Below are positions 1,121 to 58,872 of a stretch of 64,000 nucleotides of DNA, in pieces. The stretch lies in sequence record PP216084. One strand, written 5' to 3'. Every line of letters begins with the position of its first letter. Position 1 is the first letter of the stretch. Both the position numbers and the translations under genes were made by a program. The notes under the pieces are model-generated. The model had not been told where the DNA came from, ran no database searches, and saw only the letters and a program-made list of their open reading frames with translations. The stretch comes from Escherichia phage vB_EcoS_HZ_ZJUN2.

Positions 1121-4100
1121 TGGCACTTAAAACTAAAATTATTGTACAGCAGATCCTGAACATAGATGACACTACAACTACTGCTAGTAAGTATCCTAAA
1201 TATACAGTAGTTTTAGGTAATTCTACTAGTTCTATTACTGCTGGTGAATTAACTGCTGCTGTAGAGGCCGCTGCAGGATCCGCTGCTGCTGCTAAAAATT
1301 CTGAAATAGCAGCTAAAGACTCTGAAAATAAAGCTAAAGATTCAGAAATTCAGGCAGGTATTCATGCTGATGCTTCTGAGGCTTCAGCAACCCAGTCTGC
1401 TGCTTCTGCTGCTGAATCTGAAAAACAAGCTAACTTATCTCAAAGTAGTGCTGAAAACTCTGCTGCTTCTGCCTTAGAATCTAAAAATTTTAGAGACGCT
1501 GCCGCACTTGCTGCTCAAAATGCAGAGCAGAGTAAGATTTTAGCAGATCAAGCTCAAAGAGCGGCAGAAGCTGCCCAGACAGCGGCTGAAACAGCTAGGA
1601 CTGGCGCTGAAACAGCAAAAGCTGGAGCAGATGCTGCTGCTACAACTGCTGGAGAACACGCTGCTGCTGCGAAACAATCAGAATTAAATGCTAAAACTTC
1701 TGAGACTAATGCTGCTAGCTCTGCTACAGAAGCGGGTGACAAAGCTATTGATGCTACTACTGAAGCAGATCGTGCTAAAGCTGAAGCAGATCGTGCAACT
1801 CAGATTGTTGATAGTAAACTTGATAAGGTAGATATTTCTGGCTTCATCAAAGTTTATAAGACTAAAGCAGAAGCCGATGCTGATGTTGGAAGTCGTGTAC
1901 TAGGGGAGAAGATCCTAGTATGGAACCAAACTGATTCAAAGTACGGATGGTATAAAGTAGCTGGAACTGCTGAAGCTCCTGTTTTAGAGCTAGTAGAGAC
2001 AGAGCAAAAGCTAGTTTCTATTAACAACGTTCGTGCAGATGACGCAGGTAACGTACAGATTACTCTTCCTGGTGGTAACCCCTCTCTATGGCTGGGTGAA
2101 GTTACTTGGTTCCCTTATGATAAGGATTCAGGTGTTGGCTACCCTGGTGTTCTTCCTGCTGATGGTCGTGAAGTTCTTCGAGTAGACTATCCAGATACTT
2201 GGGAAGCTATTGAGGCTGGCTTAATCCCTTCTGTTACCGAAGAACAATGGCAAGCAGGTGCAACTCTCTACTTCTCCACTGGTAATGGTACTACTACTTT
2301 CCGTCTACCTGATATGATGCAGGGGCAGGCTTTCCGTGCACCTACTAAGGGGGAAGAAGATGGTGGTGCTATCAAGGAACAAATCCCTTATATCACTACT
2401 GTGAATGGAATTAGTCCTGCTGACGATACTGGAGCTATTAAGCTCCCTTACGTGGCGATGGTTAATGGAACTATTATACCAGATGAGAATGGAAACCTAG
2501 CACTAGGTAACGTTGTTACTAAGAATGTTTGGAATGGCACTAATGGAGAAGTTCTGCTTCGCGGTGCTTTTGGTTTAGGTGGTGTTGGTATTACATTAAA
2601 TGAACCAGATCTAGTATCCTTCTTTAAAGCTATGAGGGCCTTTGGTTCTGGGTATTATCGCAACGATACTGGAGTTGAAGGCTTGCCCGCGTATTCTGCA
2701 GGTTTCTACTCTAGAACAGCAGATACTAACTCATTTATCTGTTCTGGGTATGGTAGTGCCGTAGTATTTGCAGCTGCAATCAATGATGCTATTTTAGATA
2801 GTGAAAACCCTATTGTTCATACTAATATTCTTTATGGTACTGTTAATAAGCCGGATCTAAATGGTGATACTAATGGAGTTCTTAGTGTTGGTAAAGGTGG
2901 TACTGGAGCTACCACAGTTAGTGCTGCTAAGAAAGCTTTAGAAGTTGGTGGAGTTTTCTGTAATGATAGCCCAGCTGATGCTGCTTTCAACTCTCTCCAG
3001 AGCCCTGCTGGTATTCATGAGTTTAGACTAACTAATGAGGGGTTATGGGGTGTATGGAAGAAGGAGGAAGAAACGGTAGCTGCGTTGCCTATAGGCTCTG
3101 GAGGTACGGGAGCTACTGATAAAGTTGCTGCACGTGATAACTTTGGATTGGGGTATCATAATACTCCTAGATTTACTGGGGTAGATCTATCTAACCCCGA
3201 AAGTATACCCTATAGTGGTATCCTTAACCTAAACAGGCTAAAGGAATCTGATCAAAATGTTATTACTCAGGGTAGAATCTATCATGAGATGCAATCAGGC
3301 TTGGCTAAAATTACCCTTCATATTAACAATACTTTAAATAGTGCAAACCGTTATATACAGTTTGTAGAAAATGGTGATTTAACTGGGCTACAGAATGTAC
3401 ATGCAGTTAACTACCTTGCAAGTGGTTATGTTACAGCCCAGGGATGGATCAAAGGCGGGGAAAAAATCTATATACAGCAAACAGGTGGTGGCAACAGGGA
3501 AATTAGTATGGCTGTACCTACTCCTAATAATGACCCTGGTGCTGGTTCTTGGGTTAACTTACTACAGGGTAACTGGTATAACGGTTACTGGCAAGTAGGT
3601 GGTATCCGTGGTAGTGGACAAGATTTAACCTGTCTTCGCATTGGTGTTAATAACGCTGGTACTGATTGGAAGGAATTCAATTTCTACAACACCTATGGTG
3701 GCCATATAACTGCTCCAAAAGGTTTTCGTGGTCAGTGTACTCAAGGATATTGGGGCTTAGAGTGGGATTACATGGGCGCTCCATTTCATGCAGAGTCTGT
3801 AACAAATAATGATGGTGGTTGGTCTCCTATAGTATCGGGAGGTTCTTTATCCGCTGGTGGATATCATTTAAGAATAGGCCTTGGCTGTATCTCTAATGGT
3901 AACACTGCATGGCCTGACGCTGCTCTTAAGTTAAATGGGGATGGCCAGTTCCACCGTTCATTCAACTTTAGAACAAACGGTAGCGTGTATACTTGGGGTA
4001 ATGATCCTTGGGGAGGTAACTATGACTTTGCTATGAACCCTTCTTCAGATAGAGATATCAAAAGAGATATTAATTATGATGATGGGTTAGCCTCCTATGA

Positions 4101-27211: not shown

Positions 27212-29975
27212 CTAGCTCTGACATTGCTTCTTCTGCCATAGCCTTCTCTTCCTCTGTCATGAATTTGAAAGGAATTGGCATACACTCGATTTTACAATAG
27301 GTTCTGTACCAGTCTACGATATTCTCCGTGTTCATATCTTTACCAATACCCATCATACCAAGATACATTCTAGCATATTTTGGGTTAGCACTCTGGCCTG
27401 TTTTAAGGAAGAAATCCTTTTTCTTACCTTTTAGAGCTTCTATGAATGGTTTAATGGTTACATTTGAACACTTCTTAATGTCTTCCCAGAACATCTCGTG
27501 CATCTTATGAAAGAATGCAGCTCGATCATTTGGTTTATCTTTGATATATTGTTCAACATGCTCAACTGTTACATCTTTAATAGACTCAAGATGATAATAG
27601 CGAACAATAAGTAGTTTAGCTTCATACGCATCAGCATGACGTGGAGCACAATAATCCGGAGTTGAATGTAGAATAGCTTTGATTCGCTCTTCCGTATACT
27701 CTTTTCCTGCACCTTCGATAGTTCCCCAGCTTTCACTGAAAATATCAATAGTTGCACCCTGATCAAGCAAGTAATAGCGTAGAGTACTAGTATAGTTTCT
27801 AGATTCCAGCTCCCTGCGACGTGCATATAGTTGCTGTGCTAACTCCAGCCAACCCTCATCAATGTTATATTGCTCAGAACCTGCGGAGAATCCACTCGTA
27901 GATTTATCAATAAAATAATAAATGTTCTGAGCGCCACGGTCGCGCCTGATTGCTTGGAAACGCATGTTTGGCGCTTGGTTTGAGGTTCTAGTGATAACGA
28001 ATACGTTATCAAAATAGTTGAAGTCAACACCACTAGTTACGGATGGACTACATAATAAGCAATCAATTTGTTGGTCAATTAGCTCATTAGTTGTGTAATC
28101 CAGGATACGTCGAATATCTACATCAGACGTAGAGTTTGAATGGATTTCCTTAACTAACGCACCCGTATTACGACGCAATGCCATGCCCTTCTCATTCAGT
28201 TCATCAGGGCCACAATCAGATACCAGAATAGATTTCTCCCCCATCTCTAGAGAAGTCTGAAGTGCAACCCAAATACTGGATTCGTCAGGGAATTCATAAG
28301 CATGAGCTTTTGATAGCATCTTACGGTGATGATTATAAAATGCTACTGGTTTATCAAAATCAATTAGAGAACCATATGCTTCAATAGTTTCGGCACTAAT
28401 ATCACCATCTGATAGAATCACAGTTTTAGCTGTCATGAGGATGTCACGTAGAACTTGAATACATTCGCGACGTTGTTTAACAACTGGGGCGAATAATAGA
28501 TCATTCATTACAGCGTCACATTCATCAATAAAGATGGTGTCTATTTGACCAATAAAACTTTTGAACTTATGCAAAGAGTGAATAGTTGTGGACATACGAT
28601 CAATAGCCCCACGTTTAAAGTTGAGCATATCTACAGACTTATCATATTGTCCTGCGCTAAATTTCTTAGCGTTTGAAGATACCAGCGCTCTAGTATTTGT
28701 AACTGCTAAAAAGTTGCCAGGAAGAACACCTGCGTCCAGCCATTTAGTTACTGCCGTAGTTTTACCAGTACCAAGACTTGCCTTAACAAAGGTTATGTGG
28801 CCTTTTGGAGGCACAATGTTAATCTTCAGGTATGGAACTTCTGGTGGAGAATCCACTTCTAATTTCTTGAGTGGAACACCCTTCAGATTTAATGGAATCT
28901 CACGTTTAGAATTATTAACAAACGCTTTGAGAGCCTGCTTACGACCGTTATTAAAGTAATCTTGAATATTACGACTGTTATCTTTAGTTGCAATATATTC
29001 AGATAAAGCGGGTTTAATCTCACGTTCTAGCCATGCGAAATCAACACCATCCTCTAATGCTCTATGGTATAGTTTAGGGATAATACGCAAGTACACCCCA
29101 TCCTCAGCTTCTTCCAATTCGCTGATAGTTTCTTCTACTTTATCAGACGCGATCTTTTTGCCTTTAATTTGGTCAAGTAAGGAATAGAATTCCTCTTTGA
29201 ACTCCCCTCTAGTTGTTTCATAGTCAACCAGATTATTAGGCAAATTTACCTTCGAACCTTTAACATACACCAGACGTGGCTTACTCTCCGCTTTAAACGG
29301 ATCAACAATACCATCACTAAATAAAGGATCGGCAAAATAATGGAGCTGGACAGATGAATAATAAGCTAAGTCGGCAATGTCAAAACCGAATTTTTGCTTA
29401 CTACTATCATTGATAGACGTAAATAAGAACTTTAACTGACCTTGAGTTACCTTGACGTTAGATTCTAGCATTAAGTGCATTCGGATACCTGGTTTTAGGC
29501 CAGCCGAAGACGATGCATGAGCAATAAATCCTGCATCAAGAGGAAACATGTCCTCACTAATACTATTCAACATCTTAATAATGTGGCGGGCCATACCTAC
29601 AAGATTAAACTTGTCGTATCCACCGGTATCTAGGATACCATCCACGTCCATAGCAATAATATTGCTATGGTTGGATACATTAAAGTTACCTTTCTTACGC
29701 CGCACGTTATTTTTAGGTGCAAGACATCGACCTCGTACCGCAACGATATGAGGGTCTGACGTTAAACGTCTCATAAGAGGTAACATTTCGGCAAGGCTTT
29801 GCGGGTCATGCTCTTCTATTACATCAAATTTGAATGGCATAGAGGCTGGTTTACCTTCTGGATGCTCTTTCGAGAATCGCTTGGCAAAGGTATAATCTTC
29901 CGCTTTGATTTCTCGCCAAATACCTGTTGCTAAATCGCGAGAAAATCCGGCGTGACCTTGAAGAATAGAAAACAC
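27189..29975 (-). CDS. large P-loop NTPase, putative replication-initiation/origin-binding helicase
   Basis: 928 aa; Walker A SLGTGKTTAV, Walker B TIFIDECDAV. Confidence 0.6.
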   Translation of the reverse strand: MFSILQGHAGFSRDLATGIWREIKAEDYTFAKRFSKEHPEGKPASMPFKFDVIEEHDPQSLAEMLPLMRRLTSDPHIVAVRGRCLAPKNNVRRKKGNFNVSNHSNIIAMDVDGILDTGGYDKFNLVGMARHIIKMLNSISEDMFPLDAGFIAHASSSAGLKPGIRMHLMLESNVKVTQGQLKFLFTSINDSSKQKFGFDIADLAYYSSVQLHYFADPLFSDGIVDPFKAESKPRLVYVKGSKVNLPNNLVDYETTRGEFKEEFYSLLDQIKGKKIASDKVEETISELEEAEDGVYLRIIPKLYHRALEDGVDFAWLEREIKPALSEYIATKDNSRNIQDYFNNGRKQALKAFVNNSKREIPLNLKGVPLKKLEVDSPPEVPYLKINIVPPKGHITFVKASLGTGKTTAVTKWLDAGVLPGNFLAVTNTRALVSSNAKKFSAGQYDKSVDMLNFKRGAIDRMSTTIHSLHKFKSFIGQIDTIFIDECDAVMNDLLFAPVVKQRRECIQVLRDILMTAKTVILSDGDISAETIEAYGSLIDFDKPVAFYNHHRKMLSKAHAYEFPDESSIWVALQTSLEMGEKSILVSDCGPDELNEKGMALRRNTGALVKEIHSNSTSDVDIRRILDYTTNELIDQQIDCLLCSPSVTSGVDFNYFDNVFVITRTSNQAPNMRFQAIRRDRGAQNIYYFIDKSTSGFSAGSEQYNIDEGWLELAQQLYARRRELESRNYTSTLRYYLLDQGATIDIFSESWGTIEGAGKEYTEERIKAILHSTPDYCAPRHADAYEAKLLIVRYYHLESIKDVTVEHVEQYIKDKPNDRAAFFHKMHEMFWEDIKKCSNVTIKPFIEALKGKKKDFFLKTGQSANPKYARMYLGMMGIGKDMNTENIVDWYRTYCKIECMPIPFKFMTEEEKAMAEEAMSELGARNDSE

Positions 29976-30473
29976 AACAATACTCCTGTGTTGGTTAATC
30001 GAAAATCTTTTCTTTAGGACTATTCAGAAAGAATAGAACAACTATTACTACTATTTACGTAAACATCAATTATCATCAAGCAATATGAATAAGTTATCAT
30101 ATCTCAGTGCTGTGCTCTCTTCGCTCATATACAGAATAGAACCTAGGTCATTGGCCGCTAAGCCGATTCTATTTGTCCTCACTATCCTATTGGTAGGTGA
30201 CTACTGTACGTGCCGCCATTCGCTGCTCTTTTCGTTCGCACCCCCATATAAAGCTCTGCCTATATAACGAGCTAAATATGCACGGTTTGGATTTACCTTT
30301 CCGAATTCAGGGTACACAGATCACTTAATTGAAGATTAACTAATGCAATATAAACACTAGTAATAGTTAAAACAACCCTTAATGGGGCAGCCTAACTGTT
30401 CCGTATCGCGGATTGTAAACAAGAAAAATTAGCAAAATCAATTTTTACTAATGTCTCTCAATTCAATATAAAT

Positions 30474-30502
30474 ATTATATCAAGATTTTGGGCATCATGC
30501 AA
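30474..30502 (-). promoter_or_regulatory. T5-type promoter (minus strand), about 490 nt upstream of the NTPase gene
   Basis: Reverse complement TTGCAT - 17 bp - TATAAT followed by ATTTATATTGAATTGAGAG. Confidence 0.55.
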
Positions 30503-30593
30503 GTAAATTTTTCCCAAAGGTGCTATCAGTGTCTTTGAGCATAGAGAAAACCGAGCCAAAATGACTCGGTAATCAGAGTTCAGCTAATAAAAA

Positions 30594-30986
30594 TCATTTG
30601 TCATTTAGGCCTGGAACATAGATCCCAACACGGTTTAATTGTTCTTTAGCTTCTTTGAGAATATCTGGAGTGTATTCCCAAATATCATCTTCCACCTGTA
30701 AAAGATGGGGCGAACAACCGTCATCCGGCACACGACATATGGCCAAACCACGTGGATGGAATATAGAGAAGTTTAGGGCAACAATCAAGCCCATAGCAGA
30801 CAATTCATTCCAATCCAATTCCCATTCCCCGGCGTATCCAGACAGGAAAACACCAACACAGGGATCATCTGTTTGCTGCTCAGGAAAAGTGAAGGAGGCT
30901 TGTCTTACCCCCAACCAACGTTGTAGCAGCTTTTCCGCACGCTTCACCAAACTAGGGTCAATCTGACGCCAAAATACTTGTTCCAT
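30594..30986 (-). CDS. hypothetical protein, paralogue A of a tandem pair
   Basis: 130 aa; shares PC(V/I)G…W.EL..MGL..ALN…PGL pattern with 30996-31424. Confidence 0.5.
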   Translation of the reverse strand: MEQVFWRQIDPSLVKRAEKLLQRWLGVRQASFTFPEQQTDDPCVGVFLSGYAGEWELDWNELSAMGLIVALNFSIFHPRGLAICRVPDDGCSPHLLQVEDDIWEYTPDILKEAKEQLNRVGIYVPGLNDK

Positions 30987-30995
30987 TCTGCCTCC

Positions 30996-31424
30996 TTAAG
31001 CAGTTAAACCTGGGATCATATACCCGAAACGTCGAAGTTTCTGAATCCCCTCATTTACTTCTTCCGGTGAGTAAGACCAACCATAACGTTCATTAACTTG
31101 AAAACCAGGAGATTCACTAGTTTTATAGTTAACAACGAGGCGATGCTTAGCAGGCATAAACAGCTTATAGTTTAACGCAAAAACTAAGCCCATTTCATCT
31201 AACTCTTTCCAGCCGACAATCTCTTCAAGACCATCCTCTACCTGAACAATTAAACCAATACAGGGAGCCTCATCAATATCATCTTTAAAGGCAAAGGAGA
31301 TTTCGTTATTCTCACACCATATTTTCAAAGAGTTAATAGCCTCATTATACAGGCTAGCCGGGAGAGTACGCCAAAAGTTAACCAAAATTGGGTTAGCTTC
31401 TTTAGAGAATACATTATTGAACAT
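30996..31424 (-). CDS. hypothetical protein, paralogue B of a tandem pair
   Basis: 142 aa; see paralogue A. Confidence 0.5.
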   Translation of the reverse strand: MFNNVFSKEANPILVNFWRTLPASLYNEAINSLKIWCENNEISFAFKDDIDEAPCIGLIVQVEDGLEEIVGWKELDEMGLVFALNYKLFMPAKHRLVVNYKTSESPGFQVNERYGWSYSPEEVNEGIQKLRRFGYMIPGLTA

Positions 31425-31426
31425 AT

Positions 31427-31933
31427 TTACACCTTAAATTGCTGTAAGGATTTACACATTTCAAGATCTGGGCTAAATTCTAGCATATAGCTAACAGCTT
31501 TTAAATCTTGAAGATTTATCCCAGTCCTACCGTTGACTATAACCGTTGGATACTGATACATCATAGCACCCGCATCATCAAGCACACACCAATGTTTGAG
31601 CTTATGCTTTTCAACGAAGCGAAGAACAGAATTACCCCTAGATAATCCACCCCCAGTAAAATCCGTTGTACCAAGAAAACGATCGATAAGACCTAATCCG
31701 GTCATAATCCGAACGTTCTCCATCTCATTTCTAACAGAGAACCAAGATGATACTCCAACAATCATTATCGGAGAAAGACGAATAAAGTCCTGAAAAGCCT
31801 TGAGAAGCGGTTTGAAAACCCAGTCACTTCCAAAGAAAATCTTTTCATCATCAGGTGCATGATGGTGGGAGATGCTCGAATTGAGCACTCCATCAATGTC
31901 CAGAAAAATAATTGGAGTATTACTTATTTCCAT
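31427..31933 (-). CDS. HAD-superfamily hydrolase-like protein (possible nucleotidase/phosphatase)
   Basis: N-terminal FLDIDGVLN (HAD motif I, DxDG). Confidence 0.5.
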   Translation of the reverse strand: MEISNTPIIFLDIDGVLNSSISHHHAPDDEKIFFGSDWVFKPLLKAFQDFIRLSPIMIVGVSSWFSVRNEMENVRIMTGLGLIDRFLGTTDFTGGGLSRGNSVLRFVEKHKLKHWCVLDDAGAMMYQYPTVIVNGRTGINLQDLKAVSYMLEFSPDLEMCKSLQQFKV

Positions 31934-32102
31934 TTTTGTTCCTTTCTAAGAACGTATCATACTCAACCGTATCAACATATATAACACCATAGTCATCGGA
32001 TTTATAGTCCATTTCCCACAGCTCACAGCGATAGCACCAACTACCATCCGCCCATACAAATATATCATCGGGATGTGTATAAACAGATTTAACTATGGAC
32101 AT
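31920..32102 (-). CDS. small hypothetical protein (WCYR-motif family, copy 1)
   Basis: 60 aa; DDIFVWADGSWCYRCEL. Confidence 0.4.
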   Translation of the reverse strand: MSIVKSVYTHPDDIFVWADGSWCYRCELWEMDYKSDDYGVIYVDTVEYDTFLERNKNGNK

Positions 32103-32278
32103 ATCTGTTTCTCCTCATCTCCAGAGGATAACCATATATTATCCGTAGTATAGATAATTTTATATGTGTTGCCTAATCTTTCTTTTACATTAGGAAATCT
32201 ATAGGCAAACCTATAACACCAAGTGCCAGACTCAGTTATAAAAATATCCCATTCATTATTTCTTGCTTCTCGACACAT
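32093..32278 (-). CDS. small hypothetical protein (WCYR-motif family, copy 2)
   Basis: 61 aa; WDIFITESGTWCYRFAY. Confidence 0.4.
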   Translation of the reverse strand: MCREARNNEWDIFITESGTWCYRFAYRFPNVKERLGNTYKIIYTTDNIWLSSGDEEKQICP

Positions 32279-33074
32279 AAGGTCTACCCTCTAAATGAGC
32301 TTCTACACGAGCAATAAAATCAGGGTCACTGAAAGCATCCACCGCACCTTTACTCCAGTAAGGGACACCACGTTCTTCTAGCTGGTACATCTCACTACGA
32401 GTCATACCTTGATAGCCCGGTTCCGCCGCTAGGGCACTATCGTAGTAGTTAACAACCATAAGTTTCGCAGCAGTCAAATTAAGAACAGGAAATAATTCCC
32501 AGTAGAAGTTAATTACTTGGTTAGAGCAACCAACCACAATGATCATATCTTGACTGGTAATACCATCAAAAACATTATACATTTCTGTGTATGCAGGAGC
32601 ATGCTCCCCAAAGAATATTACATTAGGTTTAACCCATTTATAATCATCTGGATCAATAGACTTGTACCCTACATCAATAATCCGTTTATTGCTACTATTA
32701 TAGCTATCAGCTACAACAACCTCTTTTAAATATCCATGAATGTGTAGAATATCACTATGTGGAACGCCAGCACGCTCAATAAGGTCATCAACGTTGGTAG
32801 TCAAGTTTACTACTTGACCTGGATATTGTTTATACCATTCACCAATACGCAAATGCGCAAGATTGGGTTCAACAGTTTTTAGCTCTTCACGACGCTTGTT
32901 GTAAAACATATGGGTTTTATGATAAAAATTACCACGAAAGGCGTGAATATTACATACTTCTTCTAGATCATAATCATCCCACAGTGCTTTACCACTAGCA
33001 GTATCAGTACGAAAAGCTCGTACACCACTTTCAACACTCAAACCTGCACCGCTAATAACAATTAATCTACGCAC
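32256..33074 (-). CDS. Sir2-like (sirtuin-fold) NAD-binding protein
   Basis: GAGLSVESGVRAFR, TTNVDDL and HIHG motifs match the sirtuin NAD-binding/catalytic signature; no zinc-ribbon cysteines. Confidence 0.6.
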   Translation of the reverse strand: MRRLIVISGAGLSVESGVRAFRTDTASGKALWDDYDLEEVCNIHAFRGNFYHKTHMFYNKRREELKTVEPNLAHLRIGEWYKQYPGQVVNLTTNVDDLIERAGVPHSDILHIHGYLKEVVVADSYNSSNKRIIDVGYKSIDPDDYKWVKPNVIFFGEHAPAYTEMYNVFDGITSQDMIIVVGCSNQVINFYWELFPVLNLTAAKLMVVNYYDSALAAEPGYQGMTRSEMYQLEERGVPYWSKGAVDAFSDPDFIARVEAHLEGRPYVSRSKK

Positions 33075-49731: not shown

Positions 49732-49954
49732 ATATTCATAAATTAGGGAACAGCGAGCCGATTACGCTGAATGCAGAATCCCAACCGGAGCGCATTGAAT
49801 AGAGTCGGTGGGTTAGTTGTAAAACTAGTACACAGGGGGCGGCAATCCCGGTTAGTGGCTAGAACGTGTAAAATGAGGCGTCTGAAACCTCTCCCCTAAA
49901 CTCTTCTCTAATTTATAAATAGTGGGGTGTGGAAATCACTTATGTAGTAACACT

Positions 49955-50026
49955 GCCGATCTAGTATAAACGGTATTATCAAGCCGTAACTGGTGGAAGA
50001 TGTAGGTTCGAATCCTACGATCGGTA
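49955..50026 (+). other. tRNA-like element with aberrant anticodon arm (possible pseudo-tRNA)
   Basis: 7-bp acceptor pairing GCCGATC/GATCGGT and perfect T-arm GTAGG-TTCGAAT-CCTAC, but no 5-bp anticodon stem with U33 and no encoded CCA. Confidence 0.3.
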
Positions 50027-50527
50027 AGAACTGGATAACTGGTGCTTTTAACGTAAAAGCTTCCGAGGTTAGTTGCGCACTGCCTAAACCACGCGGTAGT
50101 TGGTTCCAGACTAACCAACCAGTCTGCTGAATAGTTTTATTACGATTTAACTATGTCCAGGCTAAAGAAGAACTTTAGAAGGTATTCTAGGTAGTGAAGT
50201 TTTTCCTCCATATCGGAGTAGTTTTTCAAGCTACCAACAAAGTGGGAAATGCTGACATGAGAGATGTCACTAATGGTGCACAATAGCACAGGTAATTCGC
50301 GATAACTCCTGTTGAGTAGCAGCAAAAGGCGGGAAGTCATGACCCCAAGCCTAACCGAGTCCTCAATATACCGCAGGACATAACCACTAAGTCACCCTGA
50401 CTTAAACTGGAAAATAATAGACGTTACTGTATTTTGTCTTGAAATACTTAATGAGTGAGACTTATGACTCTCCCGGTATCGTCTGTATTTTTAAGAGTTT
50501 TTACGAGAGTTCTTAAAAATACTTAAA

Positions 50528-52503: not shown

Positions 52504-52581
52504 GGTTCTCAAGCTCATATGGTATGAGCACCCAGCTCATAACTGGAAGGTACGTAGGTTCGAATCCTCGGGGAGCCACCA
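52504..52581 (+). tRNA. tRNA-Met-like (anticodon CAT)
   Basis: Acceptor GGTTCTC/GGGAGCC, D-stem GCTC/GAGC, anticodon loop CTCATAA, CCA; T-stem has only 3 clean pairs. Confidence 0.55.
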
Positions 52582-54511: not shown

Positions 54512-54586
54512 GCACCTTTAGCTGAGATGGATTAGCGCTTGCCTGAAGAGCTTGAAAGGTTGGATCGTTACCAACGGGGTGCACCA
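54512..54586 (+). tRNA. tRNA-Phe (anticodon GAA)
   Basis: Acceptor GCACCTT/GGGGTGC, D-stem GCTG/TAGC, anticodon loop CTGAAGA, CCA; anticodon stem has two U-U pairs, T-loop ATCGTTA is atypical. Confidence 0.55.
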
Positions 54587-56836: not shown

Positions 56837-56936
56837 AACAATTGCGGGTGGGAGGCATAGAGTTCTTCTTAGTCTCATAAGCTAAGTAAGTCCAGGGCAG
56901 TACTGGAACCCGCTACCAATTTCAAGAAAAACTCAT

Positions 56937-56965
56937 TTGCTTAATGCTTAATTTCTTGTTATAAT
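56937..56965 (+). promoter_or_regulatory. T5-type promoter driving an ORF-free ~0.3-kb leader and the Ala/Leu tRNAs
   Basis: TTGCTT - 17 bp - TATAAT followed by ATTTATATAAATTGATGCG. Confidence 0.65.
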
Positions 56966-56971
56966 ATTTAT

Positions 56972-57297
56972 ATAAATTGATGCGAAAATAGCTGCCTAGA
57001 TACCAGGTGTATGACGTCTACACTAGCAGAGCTACCGAAAAAGAGATCCTCAGGATAAACGTCGTAGCAAAATTAGTCTGGTATCCATCAATTTAGTTCA
57101 CTAAGGTATTAGCTCGACCTAGGACTGGCTGCCAAAAAGCACGATCCCTACGACTTGGGAGAAGTTCTAGATTAGTCCACTAGATTCAGCGGCAACTGAA
57201 TAGTGTATTGGGTTTGCGAGATGACGCGGTTCCTTCCGCTCGAAGCGAAGGTGCTGTAGTTACGCCGAGCTAATAGCCTTAGTAAACTAAAGAATTT
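56972..57297 (+). ncRNA. candidate non-coding RNA / structured precursor leader
   Basis: ~325 nt between promoter and tRNA-Ala with no plus-strand ORF longer than 15 codons; local hairpins such as CCTTCCGC-TCGAA-GCGAAGG. Confidence 0.3.
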
Positions 57298-57821: not shown

Positions 57822-57912
57822 GGAAGAGCAAATCGAATTGGCGACGAAAACCGCTTGGAAAGTGGCTGACTGGTAAAACGGCTTGAGAGTTCAAATCTCT
57901 CCTCTTCCGCCA
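57822..57912 (+). tRNA. tRNA-Ser (anticodon GGA, tentative), long variable arm
   Basis: Perfect acceptor GGAAGAG/CTCTTCC, T-arm GAGAG-TTCAAAT-CTCTC, discriminator G, CCA; anticodon loop TTGGAAA closed by 4 pairs. Confidence 0.55.
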
Positions 57913-57919
57913 AACAAAT

Positions 57920-58025: not shown

Positions 58026-58208
58026 ATGTCTTTAACGAAAACTGTGAAGGTTACACTAACTGATGGCACAGAGTTTAGTGCACAAGTAACCTTACTAGAA
58101 GACGGTTATTGGGAAGTATATCTTCCACACGTTAATTCTACTGGTAGAGGATGGACTCAACAACAGGCTATTGTTGATGCTTTAAATGAGGCTTCTGCTG
58201 GTTTATAA
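58026..58208 (+). CDS. hypothetical protein
   Basis: 60-aa ORF. Confidence 0.45.
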   Translation: MSLTKTVKVTLTDGTEFSAQVTLLEDGYWEVYLPHVNSTGRGWTQQQAIVDALNEASAGL

Positions 58209-58215
58209 AAATTCT

Positions 58216-58346
58216 TGGAATATGCCGGAATTGGTAGACGGGACTGCCGAATAGGTTTACTAGGAACATCCACTCCTAGAAATATACCTTAAAAGCGGTT
58301 GAGTTAAATGGTCTAACTCATGAAGGTTCAAGTCCTTCTATTCCTT
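58216..58346 (+). other. ~130-nt tRNA-like element (class-II-like with large insertion, no encoded CCA)
   Basis: 5' TGGAATA pairs at 6 of 7 positions with 3' TATTCCT; D-loop-like ATTGGTAGAC; variable-arm-like hairpin TGAGTT…AACTCA; canonical T-arm GAAGG-TTCAAGT-CCTTC. Confidence 0.3.
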
Positions 58347-58575
58347 GATACATCAATGGCTCAAAGTGTAACGGTGCTATTTGATGCTCTTGGCAAGACT
58401 TCCCCGACATGCGTTCGGGAGTAAGCTGCTAAGACTAGAATAGAAGAGTTTCTGAGAGCCGCCACAATTGAAAATTCGTACTCGTCTTGAGCTGCGTGCA
58501 ATAGGAGATAACTTGATTAGTATTCTAGAACATGCTAATTGAGGAAGGTTTCGCTAACCCTGCGAGTTTTCAATT

Positions 58576-58652
58576 GTGGCTATATCATAATTGGTTAATG
58601 ATCCTGATTGTGAATCAGGCCTATGTGGATTCGAATTCCACTAGCCACCCCA
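58576..58652 (+). tRNA. tRNA-His (anticodon GTG)
   Basis: Acceptor GTGGCTA/TAGCCAC, D-stem TCAT/ATGA, anticodon stem CCTGA/TCAGG, loop TTGTGAA, discriminator C, CCA. Confidence 0.65.
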
Positions 58653-58677
58653 AATTAACTTAAATAGGAAATAAAAT

Positions 58678-58872
58678 ATGGCTGATTTCTGCAAACAATG
58701 CTCCATTGATATGTGGGGTAAAGATACTGGTGACTTAGCTGGTCTGATTACAGAAGCCGAAGTCAAAGAAGGTTATGGTGCAGTTGTGGTTTGCGAAGGA
58801 TGCGGAGTCATTCGAGTAGATCATGAAGGCAAACGTTTGGAAGAATCTGAGCCAACAACAATTTTTCCGTAG
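58678..58872 (+). CDS. hypothetical protein
   Basis: 64-aa ORF with AGGAAATAAA RBS. Confidence 0.5.
   Translation: MADFCKQCSIDMWGKDTGDLAGLITEAEVKEGYGAVVVCEGCGVIRVDHEGKRLEESEPTTIFP

Follow-up and report, generated by a model that had tools for sequence, protein, structure and literature searches.

Orthologues of the phage T5 stable RNAs in the tRNA region of a T5-like phage, and evidence that RNA1 is a conserved, non-decoding relative of tRNA-Leu

The 64,000-nt stretch of Escherichia phage vB_EcoS_HZ_ZJUN2 analyzed here (PP216084; henceforth the window) contains the transfer RNA (tRNA) region of a T5-like phage (Tequintavirus), with 21 tRNA genes predicted by ARAGORN between 49.9 and 60.1 kb and two more by Rfam. 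Within this region, a segment at 58209–58575 is bordered on one side by a 60-amino acid (aa) open reading frame (ORF) ending at 58208, and on the other by a tRNA-His gene starting at 58576. A first-pass annotation, made from the sequence alone, had singled it out as an ORF-free stretch of about 370 bp holding a tRNA-like element, and the segment indeed contains no ORF of 50 aa or more; the longest (46 aa) lies on the minus strand, and a plus-strand ORF of 43 aa overlaps tRNA-His. Alignment to the T5 reference genome (NC_005859) gives 95.6% identity over 367 nt without insertions or deletions (indels), and the T5 RefSeq record carries three misc_RNA genes at the matching positions: rna1 (T5s03, 144 nt), labeled “tRNA-like stable RNA with unknown functions”, rnaI (T5s02, 107 nt) and rnaIII (T5s01, 106 nt), with tRNA-His directly after the latter. 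Their orthologues in the window, all on the plus strand, are RNA1 at 58214–58357 (T5 30501–30644, no indels; 182.8 bits with covariance model R1), RNAI at 58358–58464 (107 nt, carried over from the T5 annotation) and RNAIII at 58469–58574 (106 nt, likewise carried over, at 99% identity), ahead of tRNA-His(GUG) at 58576–58652 (ARAGORN; 59.9 bits with Rfam; also annotated in T5). Since these three genes map onto 58214–58574, the ORF-free segment is fully taken up by known RNA genes, and the roughly 230 nt upstream of tRNA-His that had been described as devoid of ORFs, while free of any of at least 50 aa, are not empty spacer, as they hold RNAI and RNAIII.

Both the orthologous sequence and the genomic position identify these RNAs with those of T5, where the gene order is the same: tRNA-Ser(UGA), ORF T5.063, RNA1, RNAI, RNAIII, and tRNA-His. 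The two copies differ by point substitutions only, several of them compensatory (as in the variable arm of RNA1, GAGUU/AACUC here and GAGAU/AUCUC in T5), and nothing sets this copy apart functionally. A BLAST search with the segment against 50,697 phage records matches about 500 T5-like genomes. The segment can thus be assigned, with high confidence, to the known T5 stable RNAs rna1, rnaI and rnaIII, lying within a tRNA operon transcript and probably released from it by tRNA-type processing, with RNA1 being a non-decoding look-alike of tRNA-Leu. As the T5 reference already carries this feature as an annotation, its detection here is a rediscovery and adds no new element. What is new are the structures backed by covariation, the probable tRNA-Leu origin of RNA1, the evidence against an anticodon or an intron in it, a conserved RNase III-type helix enclosing swappable cassettes, and an architectural parallel with RNAC of phage T4.

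The tRNA-like body of RNA1 covers tRNA positions 1–73 (58216–58346), as read from the sequence and backed by covariation, and the minimum free energy fold of the RNA is a cloverleaf. The acceptor helix pairs TGGAATA (58216–58222) with TATTCCT (58339–58345) at six of seven positions, position 1-72 being a U.U mismatch. It is followed by U8 and G9 (58223–58224), a D arm of the tRNA-Leu type (CCG/GAATTGGTAGA/CGG, 58225–58241), a 5-bp anticodon stem (ACUGC/GCGGU, 58243–58247 with 58295–58299), a 22-nt variable region folded as a hairpin (58300–58321) with the loop AAAUGGUCU (58306–58314), and a canonical T arm (GAAGG-TTCAAGT-CCTTC, 58322–58338). The acceptor-like pairing, the D-loop-like sequence, the variable-arm-like hairpin and the T arm had all been recognized in the first-pass annotation, and the approximately 40 extra nucleotides that it placed at the anticodon arm amount to exactly 40 (58248–58287) when delimited against the anticodon stem-loop of the window's tRNA-Leu(UAG). 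The anticodon stem encloses 47 nt instead of 7, ending in an anticodon-loop-like CTTAAAA (58288–58294) directly after the insert. In the resulting extended arm of 57 nt (58243–58299), a 5x5 A-rich internal loop lies between the anticodon stem and a helix E1 (58253–58256 with 58286–58289), followed by a helix E2 (58260–58264 with 58275–58279) and an apical 10-nt loop, AACAUCCACU (58265–58274). At the 3′ end (TATTCC-T-TGATAC), position 73 is a T (58346) and no CCA is encoded, a trait that separates RNA1 from 20 of the 21 tRNAs predicted by ARAGORN in the window and that had also been pointed out beforehand.

This architecture is maintained by selection. In an alignment of 22 distinct homologues from GenBank phages, IMG/VR and metagenomes, representing Tequintavirus, Epseptimavirus, Sugarlandvirus (Klebsiella) and the Pectobacterium phage DU_PP_V, 93.3% of the sequence-by-pair cells of the cloverleaf with its long arm are occupied by standard pairs, against 41–55% in controls with the 3′ partners slid by one to three columns. 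Changes on both sides of a pair occur at 13 of 38 pairs, located in the acceptor stem, the anticodon stem, E1, E2, and the variable arm, and none of 500 shuffles reached the observed values. RNAalifold independently recovers the same helices, with 14 compensatory pairs, except for the D arm, which it pairs otherwise. The loops behave differently from the stems that carry them. All 22 homologues have the same variable-arm loop, AAAUGGUCU, while the stems drift, and of the ten positions of the apical loop AACAUCCACU, nine are without any change in these homologues, which come from at least four lineages of phages, and one (the eighth base of the loop) is A in 21 homologues and G in T5. The U.U at position 1-72 is likewise found in all 22. 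Selection hence clearly acts on both the structure and the sequence of RNA1 in several phage genera.

Without its 40-nt insert, RNA1 resembles most closely the tRNA-Leu(UAG) of the phage itself (57377–57461), which is also the best non-self match of a covariance model built from RNA1 (39.4 bits, against 21.3 bits at most for all other tRNAs in the window). The two RNAs have in common the sequence UAUGC(C/U)GGAA(U/C)UGGUAGAC, the anticodon-stem sequence, a UUAAAUG in the variable region and the elbow nucleotides of the D and T loops. They differ in the 40-nt anticodon-loop insert of RNA1, in the length of its variable region (22 nt vs. about 11), and in its U1.U72, its U73 in place of A73, its lack of CCA, and its lack of a conserved anticodon. 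These similarities support the view that RNA1 is a class-II tRNA with an insertion, apparently descended from a phage tRNA-Leu. The earlier suggestion of an insertion-disrupted class-II tRNA thus stands as regards the class and the insertion, but not as regards the disruption. The insert forms a helix that is conserved and covaries, and its loop is almost invariant, which argues against decay and makes the term misleading. The alternative offered at the same time, a processed small RNA, agrees with the T5 annotation of the orthologue as a discrete 144-nt tRNA-like stable RNA.

RNA1 does not qualify as a canonical tRNA. ARAGORN makes no tRNA call on it, and the Rfam tRNA model (RF00005) reaches 23.9 bits, below its gathering score of 29, and does so only for a shorter alternative at 58278–58346. 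This 69-nt reading was rejected, as only 54.7% of the cells of its acceptor are paired, a value that does not exceed the controls. The outcome that would count against the first-pass annotation, a normal tRNA at different boundaries, was hence not observed. RNA1 does possess acceptor, D and T arms with helices that are either covarying or invariant, together with U8, A14, G18G19, U54U55C56 and A58, and it lacks both a seven-nucleotide anticodon loop with a conserved anticodon, having 47 nt between the strands of the anticodon stem, and a 3′ NCCA. The combination of U1.U72, U73, no CCA and no conserved anticodon indicates that RNA1 is not a decoder. Judged by these sequence features, it is unable to decode and is very probably not charged.

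Two readings of this divergence would leave RNA1 without a function of its own or return it to the tRNA repertoire. A dead tRNA-Leu pseudogene, broken by the 40-nt insertion and kept only by its location in the tRNA cluster, would account for the rejection of RNA1 by tRNA predictors, for the destroyed anticodon loop and the missing CCA, and for the fact that the region is dispensable in T5. It would not account for the preservation of the insert helices through compensatory substitutions, for an apical loop shared by all but one of the 22 homologues (T5, with a single substitution), which come from at least four lineages, for the retention of RNA1 in about 490 records, including Sugarlandvirus genomes where its neighbors are different, or for the annotation of the T5 orthologue as a stable RNA. 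The covariation largely refutes a pseudogene already, and we regard it as very improbable. A comparably small chance can be given to the reading of RNA1 as a working tRNA-Leu(UAA) gene whose 40-nt intron is spliced out. The record of phage JLBYU40 implies as much by entering the RNA1 orthologue as a tRNA-Leu(taa) of 134 nt, and taking 58248–58287 out of the T5-lineage sequence does leave a perfect ACUGC-CUUAAAA-GCGGU stem-loop. That residual loop explains the JLBYU40 annotation, but the CTTAAAA that follows the insert is not conserved, its counterparts in relatives being CTCATAAA/CUCAUAAA, CCGAAAAC or CGACGG. Furthermore, 40 nt is far below the size of a group I intron, no intron family is detected here by Rfam, and the T5 annotation describes an unspliced stable RNA of 144 nt. 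Bacteria are not known to have a bulge-helix-bulge splicing endonuclease. Leucine identity in E. coli needs A73, and the U1.U72, the U73 and the missing CCA of RNA1 are at odds with it.

The downstream RNAs point to how the set may be released. RNAI forms a long irregular hairpin (fold z-score −2.6) closed by GGCUC/GAGCC and followed by a G and an encoded CCA. Its body exists in two types with the same ends, one of 107 nt in T5-type phages and one of 100–101 nt in Epseptimavirus-type phages and in DU_PP_V, and the closing helix of DU_PP_V carries a compensatory change (GGGCC/GGCUC). An acceptor-like helix with an NCCA is the minimal substrate of RNase P, and RNAI displays, as a sequence feature, such a helix with a single-stranded NCCA. 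It is plausible that the 5′ end of RNAI is an RNase P site, where a cut 5′ of G58358 would make this end and the 3′ end of RNA1 together. Some Epseptimavirus-type phages have an extra structured module of about 115 nt between RNA1 and RNAI (loci L009, ~745–865, and L010, ~740–860; also L021). It starts with the hairpin AGUGCUUCUAAUGACCUUCUGAGCACU and has no match in Rfam.

RNAIII folds as a three-way junction with a closing stem of 12 bp (fold z-score −2.9). It is enclosed by a perfect long-range helix of 19 bp on the plus strand (58462–58480 with 58561–58579), in which the CCA-C of RNAI pairs with G1–G4 of tRNA-His. Relatives carry at least six kinds of cassette in the RNAIII slot, of 72, 115, 126, 130, 142 and 152 nt (variants drawn from loci L007–L010, L021, L033 and L073), and a helix of 19–20 bp is present in all eight variants of these cassettes, uninterrupted in seven and with one mismatch in the eighth. 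In DU_PP_V, the enclosing helix shows a compensatory CAAGUG/CACUUG change. The 19 bp of the helix provide about two turns of uninterrupted double-stranded RNA. The annotated ends of RNAIII fall on it such that the 5′ U58469 pairs with A58572 and the 3′ end is U58574, leaving a 2-nt 3′ overhang that is a signature of RNase III, to the extent that the T5 annotation is accurate. From these features we infer that RNase III processes the helix around RNAIII. A staggered cut of this type would free RNAIII and leave on RNAI a 4-nt tail (CAAU), to be trimmed down to the CCA, and on tRNA-His a leader of one base, U-1. The predicted leader matches the T5 annotation, where tRNA-His begins one base before G1 (58575 here). 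This U-1 stands opposite C73, and RNase III rather than RNase P may here produce the additional 5′ nucleotide that is characteristic of tRNA-His, which would be a U instead of a G. Some of the cassettes found in the RNAIII slot have the short motifs GGGAUAACU and GGUCUGAUCA in common, and may thus be distantly related rather than unrelated.

No plus-strand sigma-70 match was found between these RNAs and an orthologue of the T5 promoter P13b (56918–56982, plus strand; 92% identity to the T5 regulatory feature), which is the likely start of the transcript. Given the absence of a promoter of their own and the presence of P13b upstream, RNA1, RNAI and RNAIII are most likely excised from a long transcript of tRNAs and ORFs. 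The small ORFs on either side of them (58026–58208 and 58678–58872) belong to the T5.063 and T5.062 families (PHROG 16298 and 2210, families of unknown function) and have no Pfam domain. A resemblance of the upstream 60-aa ORF to a HicB-like antitoxin finds no support in Pfam, where the best E-value is 0.027, to an unrelated family.

RNA1 is present in about 490 phage records from Tequintavirus, Epseptimavirus, Sugarlandvirus and a Pectobacterium phage. In Sugarland it occurs without RNAI or RNAIII, neither of which was detected in Sugarlandvirus. Gostya9 and TrudiRoth match by BLAST only the RNAI–RNAIII and the RNA1–RNAI parts, respectively. These partial sets indicate that the modules are separable and that RNA1 can stand alone. 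The gene upstream of RNA1 also varies by lineage, being a member of the ORF063 family, another coding sequence, or tRNA-Ser directly. A search of 185,579 bacterial genomes with a loose three-block pattern returned 12 matches, close to the number estimated for chance, and none of them fits the RNA1 model. The same pattern gave 24 matches in metagenomes, nine of which are real by this model, all of them near-identical T5-like copies. The T5 mutant T5-123, which lacks 29191–32442, is viable (PMC11464382), and its deletion covers rna1 to rnaIII (30284–30644) assuming that the coordinates in the paper are those of RefSeq, with which the tRNA gene content is in agreement. The tRNA region of T5 is, furthermore, a deletion hotspot (PMC12483538), and both observations imply that these RNAs are accessory.

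A parallel to RNA1 can be found in phage T4, whose tRNA cluster encodes two small stable RNAs, RNAC and RNAD, with unknown roles (PMC3014915, PMC9697503). T4 rnaC (species 1 RNA, 139 nt; rnaC and rnaD lie at 2909–3172 of locus L075) was folded and aligned with three divergent Tevenvirinae copies (L076–L078). It shows an acceptor-like helix interrupted by two U.U mismatches, a long arm of about 58 nt, a variable-arm-like hairpin and a canonical T arm, and has no CCA. Compensatory changes are seen at 13 of its 43 pairs in the four sequences, and the loop of the variable hairpin, GUAGCGUCAACUAC, is invariant. Like RNA1, then, RNAC is an RNA of about 140 nt from a phage tRNA cluster and has as its neighbor another stable RNA, of about 110–120 nt; it too has U.U in its acceptor-like helix, an arm of some 58 nt at the place of the anticodon arm, an invariant loop on its variable hairpin, a T arm and no CCA. 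RNAC has no D arm, however, whereas RNA1 has one, and the long arm is the variable part among T4 relatives, while the apical loop of the long arm of RNA1 is conserved, with one substitution in 22 homologues. On T4 RNAC the R1 model scores 8.9 bits, against about 31 bits on the tRNA-Leu and tRNA-Ser of T4, which does not place RNA1 in an RNAC family, and the likeness is best described as one of analogous architecture, with no demonstrated homology. In the RNAC of Klebsiella phage KaAlpha, the long arm has a different sequence and the same shape, and in T4-like records RNAC is often left unannotated, a few of them calling it a hypothetical protein or a tRNA-Lys. A tRNA elbow kept under a replaced decoding end is also seen in two known tRNA mimics, transfer-messenger RNA (tmRNA) and the bacterial Y RNA YrlA, from which RNA1 is distinguished by its full D arm and its lack of a tag reading frame. 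YrlA is circularly permuted relative to RNA1. ARAGORN and Rfam find no tmRNA in the window, and RNA1 has no Rfam match to tmRNA or YrlA.

What RNA1 does can be approached from the parts that it keeps and the parts that it has lost. It retains all the elements required for the L-shaped body of a tRNA, namely the acceptor helix, a D arm with G18G19, a T arm with UUCAAGU, and the long variable arm, and its anticodon loop has given way to a 57-nt irregular helix with a nearly invariant 10-nt loop. As a tRNA mimic, this body would dock onto a host or phage factor that recognizes tRNA, and its two loops (apical AACAUCCACU and variable-arm AAAUGGUCU) would give specificity, for instance as a decoy or inhibitor of a tRNA-targeting defense or enzyme. 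The intact tRNA elbow, the lost decoding and charging features, the two conserved distal loops and the accessory status of the RNA in an anti-defense tRNA region all point in this direction. Some T5 tRNAs serve to outrun host nucleases that cut tRNA (PMC11464382, PMC11555353). Mimicry is nonetheless the weakest inferred part of our interpretation, and we put it forward as a tentative possibility. Selection on an RNA unable to decode does make RNA1 a well-defined candidate for a tRNA mimic, with exact positions to mutate. More speculative still, and to be held with some doubt, is the idea that T5 RNA1 and T4 RNAC represent an unrecognized class of phage RNAs, “long-arm tRNA mimics” that dock on a tRNA-recognizing protein. 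Candidate partners would be a defense nuclease that cleaves tRNAs, a synthetase, or a modification or processing enzyme, which the conserved distal loops would inhibit, decoy or redirect. If such a class exists, it would constitute an RNA-based counter-defense complementing the nuclease-resistant tRNAs of the phage, and the same processing signals would deliver a second group of rapidly evolving RNA payloads, the cassettes of the RNAIII slot.

Other explanations for the three RNAs bear on the same observations. On the one hand, RNA1, RNAI and RNAIII might be cis-acting punctuation, that is, structured spacers directing the cuts of RNase P and RNase III and protecting the neighboring tRNAs and small mRNAs, and might accumulate through their stability only. 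That all three lack a promoter of their own and are part of a polycistronic tRNA/ORF transcript fits this well, as do the RNAIII slot, where the closing helix persists around at least six interchangeable interiors, and RNAI, with its conserved ends and two types of body. An ordinary tRNA or a simple hairpin would do for this purpose, however, and punctuation leaves unexplained the fixed loops of RNA1 on drifting stems and its survival in the different context of Sugarland, as well as being at variance with the changing identity of the gene upstream of RNA1. It is on this balance an unlikely explanation. On the other hand, the apical loop AACAUCCACU, with one substitution in 22 homologues on a covarying stem, has the classic look of an antisense seed, and RNA1 could be a base-pairing regulator whose loop pairs with a host or phage RNA, the tRNA body being there for stability. 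The 64-kb window contains five complementary sites for 4.6 expected, and these lie in long ORFs or on the wrong strand, so that a regulator of this kind seems rather improbable, less so nevertheless than small proteins encoded in the segment, a notion that hardly merits consideration. Phage OSYSP and several other records do annotate “hypothetical proteins” here, and ORFs of 20–46 aa are present, but the longest plus-strand one (43 aa, 58532–58663) crosses tRNA-His, the substitutions among homologues track RNA pairing and not codons, and indels and whole-cassette swaps occur inside the region.

Several observations weigh against the interpretation preferred here, in which the T5 stable RNAs are released by tRNA-type processing and RNA1 acts as a tRNA mimic. 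The boundaries of RNA1, RNAI and RNAIII are taken from the T5 RefSeq annotation, and the processing steps drawn from them are to be read as predictions. The annotated 5′ end of RNA1, C58214, lies 2 nt upstream of tRNA position 1, which is not the usual cut site of RNase P. The interior of RNAIII is 99% conserved among T5-type phages, and RNAIII may hence be more than a by-product of processing. No partner was found for the conserved loops of RNA1, 10-mers complementary to them occurring in the 64-kb window at chance frequency and inside long ORFs, and the two loops can pair directly with each other over 3 bp at most, as read from the sequence. Lastly, fragments of the T5-123 deletion supplied on a plasmid, other than the one with tRNA-Lys, did not relieve PARIS (PMC11464382), meaning that at least one tested defense is not countered by the RNA region.

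Large lytic phages carry tRNA clusters, and the stable RNAs embedded in them that are not tRNAs, such as RNA1, RNAI, RNAIII and RNA2H in T5 or RNAC and RNAD in T4, are without an Rfam family, a gap in the reference library. In searches of the window and five related loci at gathering and E-value thresholds, no Rfam family was found for RNA1, RNAI, RNAIII or the alternative cassettes, and a full-text literature search found no function described for the T5 stable RNAs. T5-like records mostly leave these RNAs unannotated or mislabel them. Beyond the T5 reference, the segment is mostly blank in deposited genomes, with small “hypothetical proteins” called in some (OSYSP among them), and several records have a “tRNA-Ser” feature under the match, in addition to the tRNA-Leu of JLBYU40.

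The window contains further RNA features of interest. An orthologue of RNA2H, the fourth T5 stable RNA, lies downstream of P13b at 57107–57278 (172 nt, 98.8% identity) and has a 10-bp terminal stem; P13b-like sequences occur at about nine other places in the window. At 57830–57917, a tRNA-Ser(GGA)-like gene (GGAAGAG...CTCTTCC-G-CCA) with a weak D stem is missed both by ARAGORN and by Rfam at the gathering threshold. Its T5 equivalent is annotated as tRNAS2(GGA) and does not work as a suppressor. The tRNAs at 52504–52578 and 54512–54583 are detected by Rfam (38.2 and 32.6 bits) and not by ARAGORN, and the “tRNA-Ser(act)” of ARAGORN at 49954–50027, which is the sole predicted tRNA without an encoded CCA, is doubtful or unusual. 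Among the deposited genomes, the T5-type region of the three RNAs is present at 80–92% identity in two records labeled “Listeria phage LM 4-14-1” and “Campylobacter phage C13”, which look like mislabeled or contaminating T5-like sequences.

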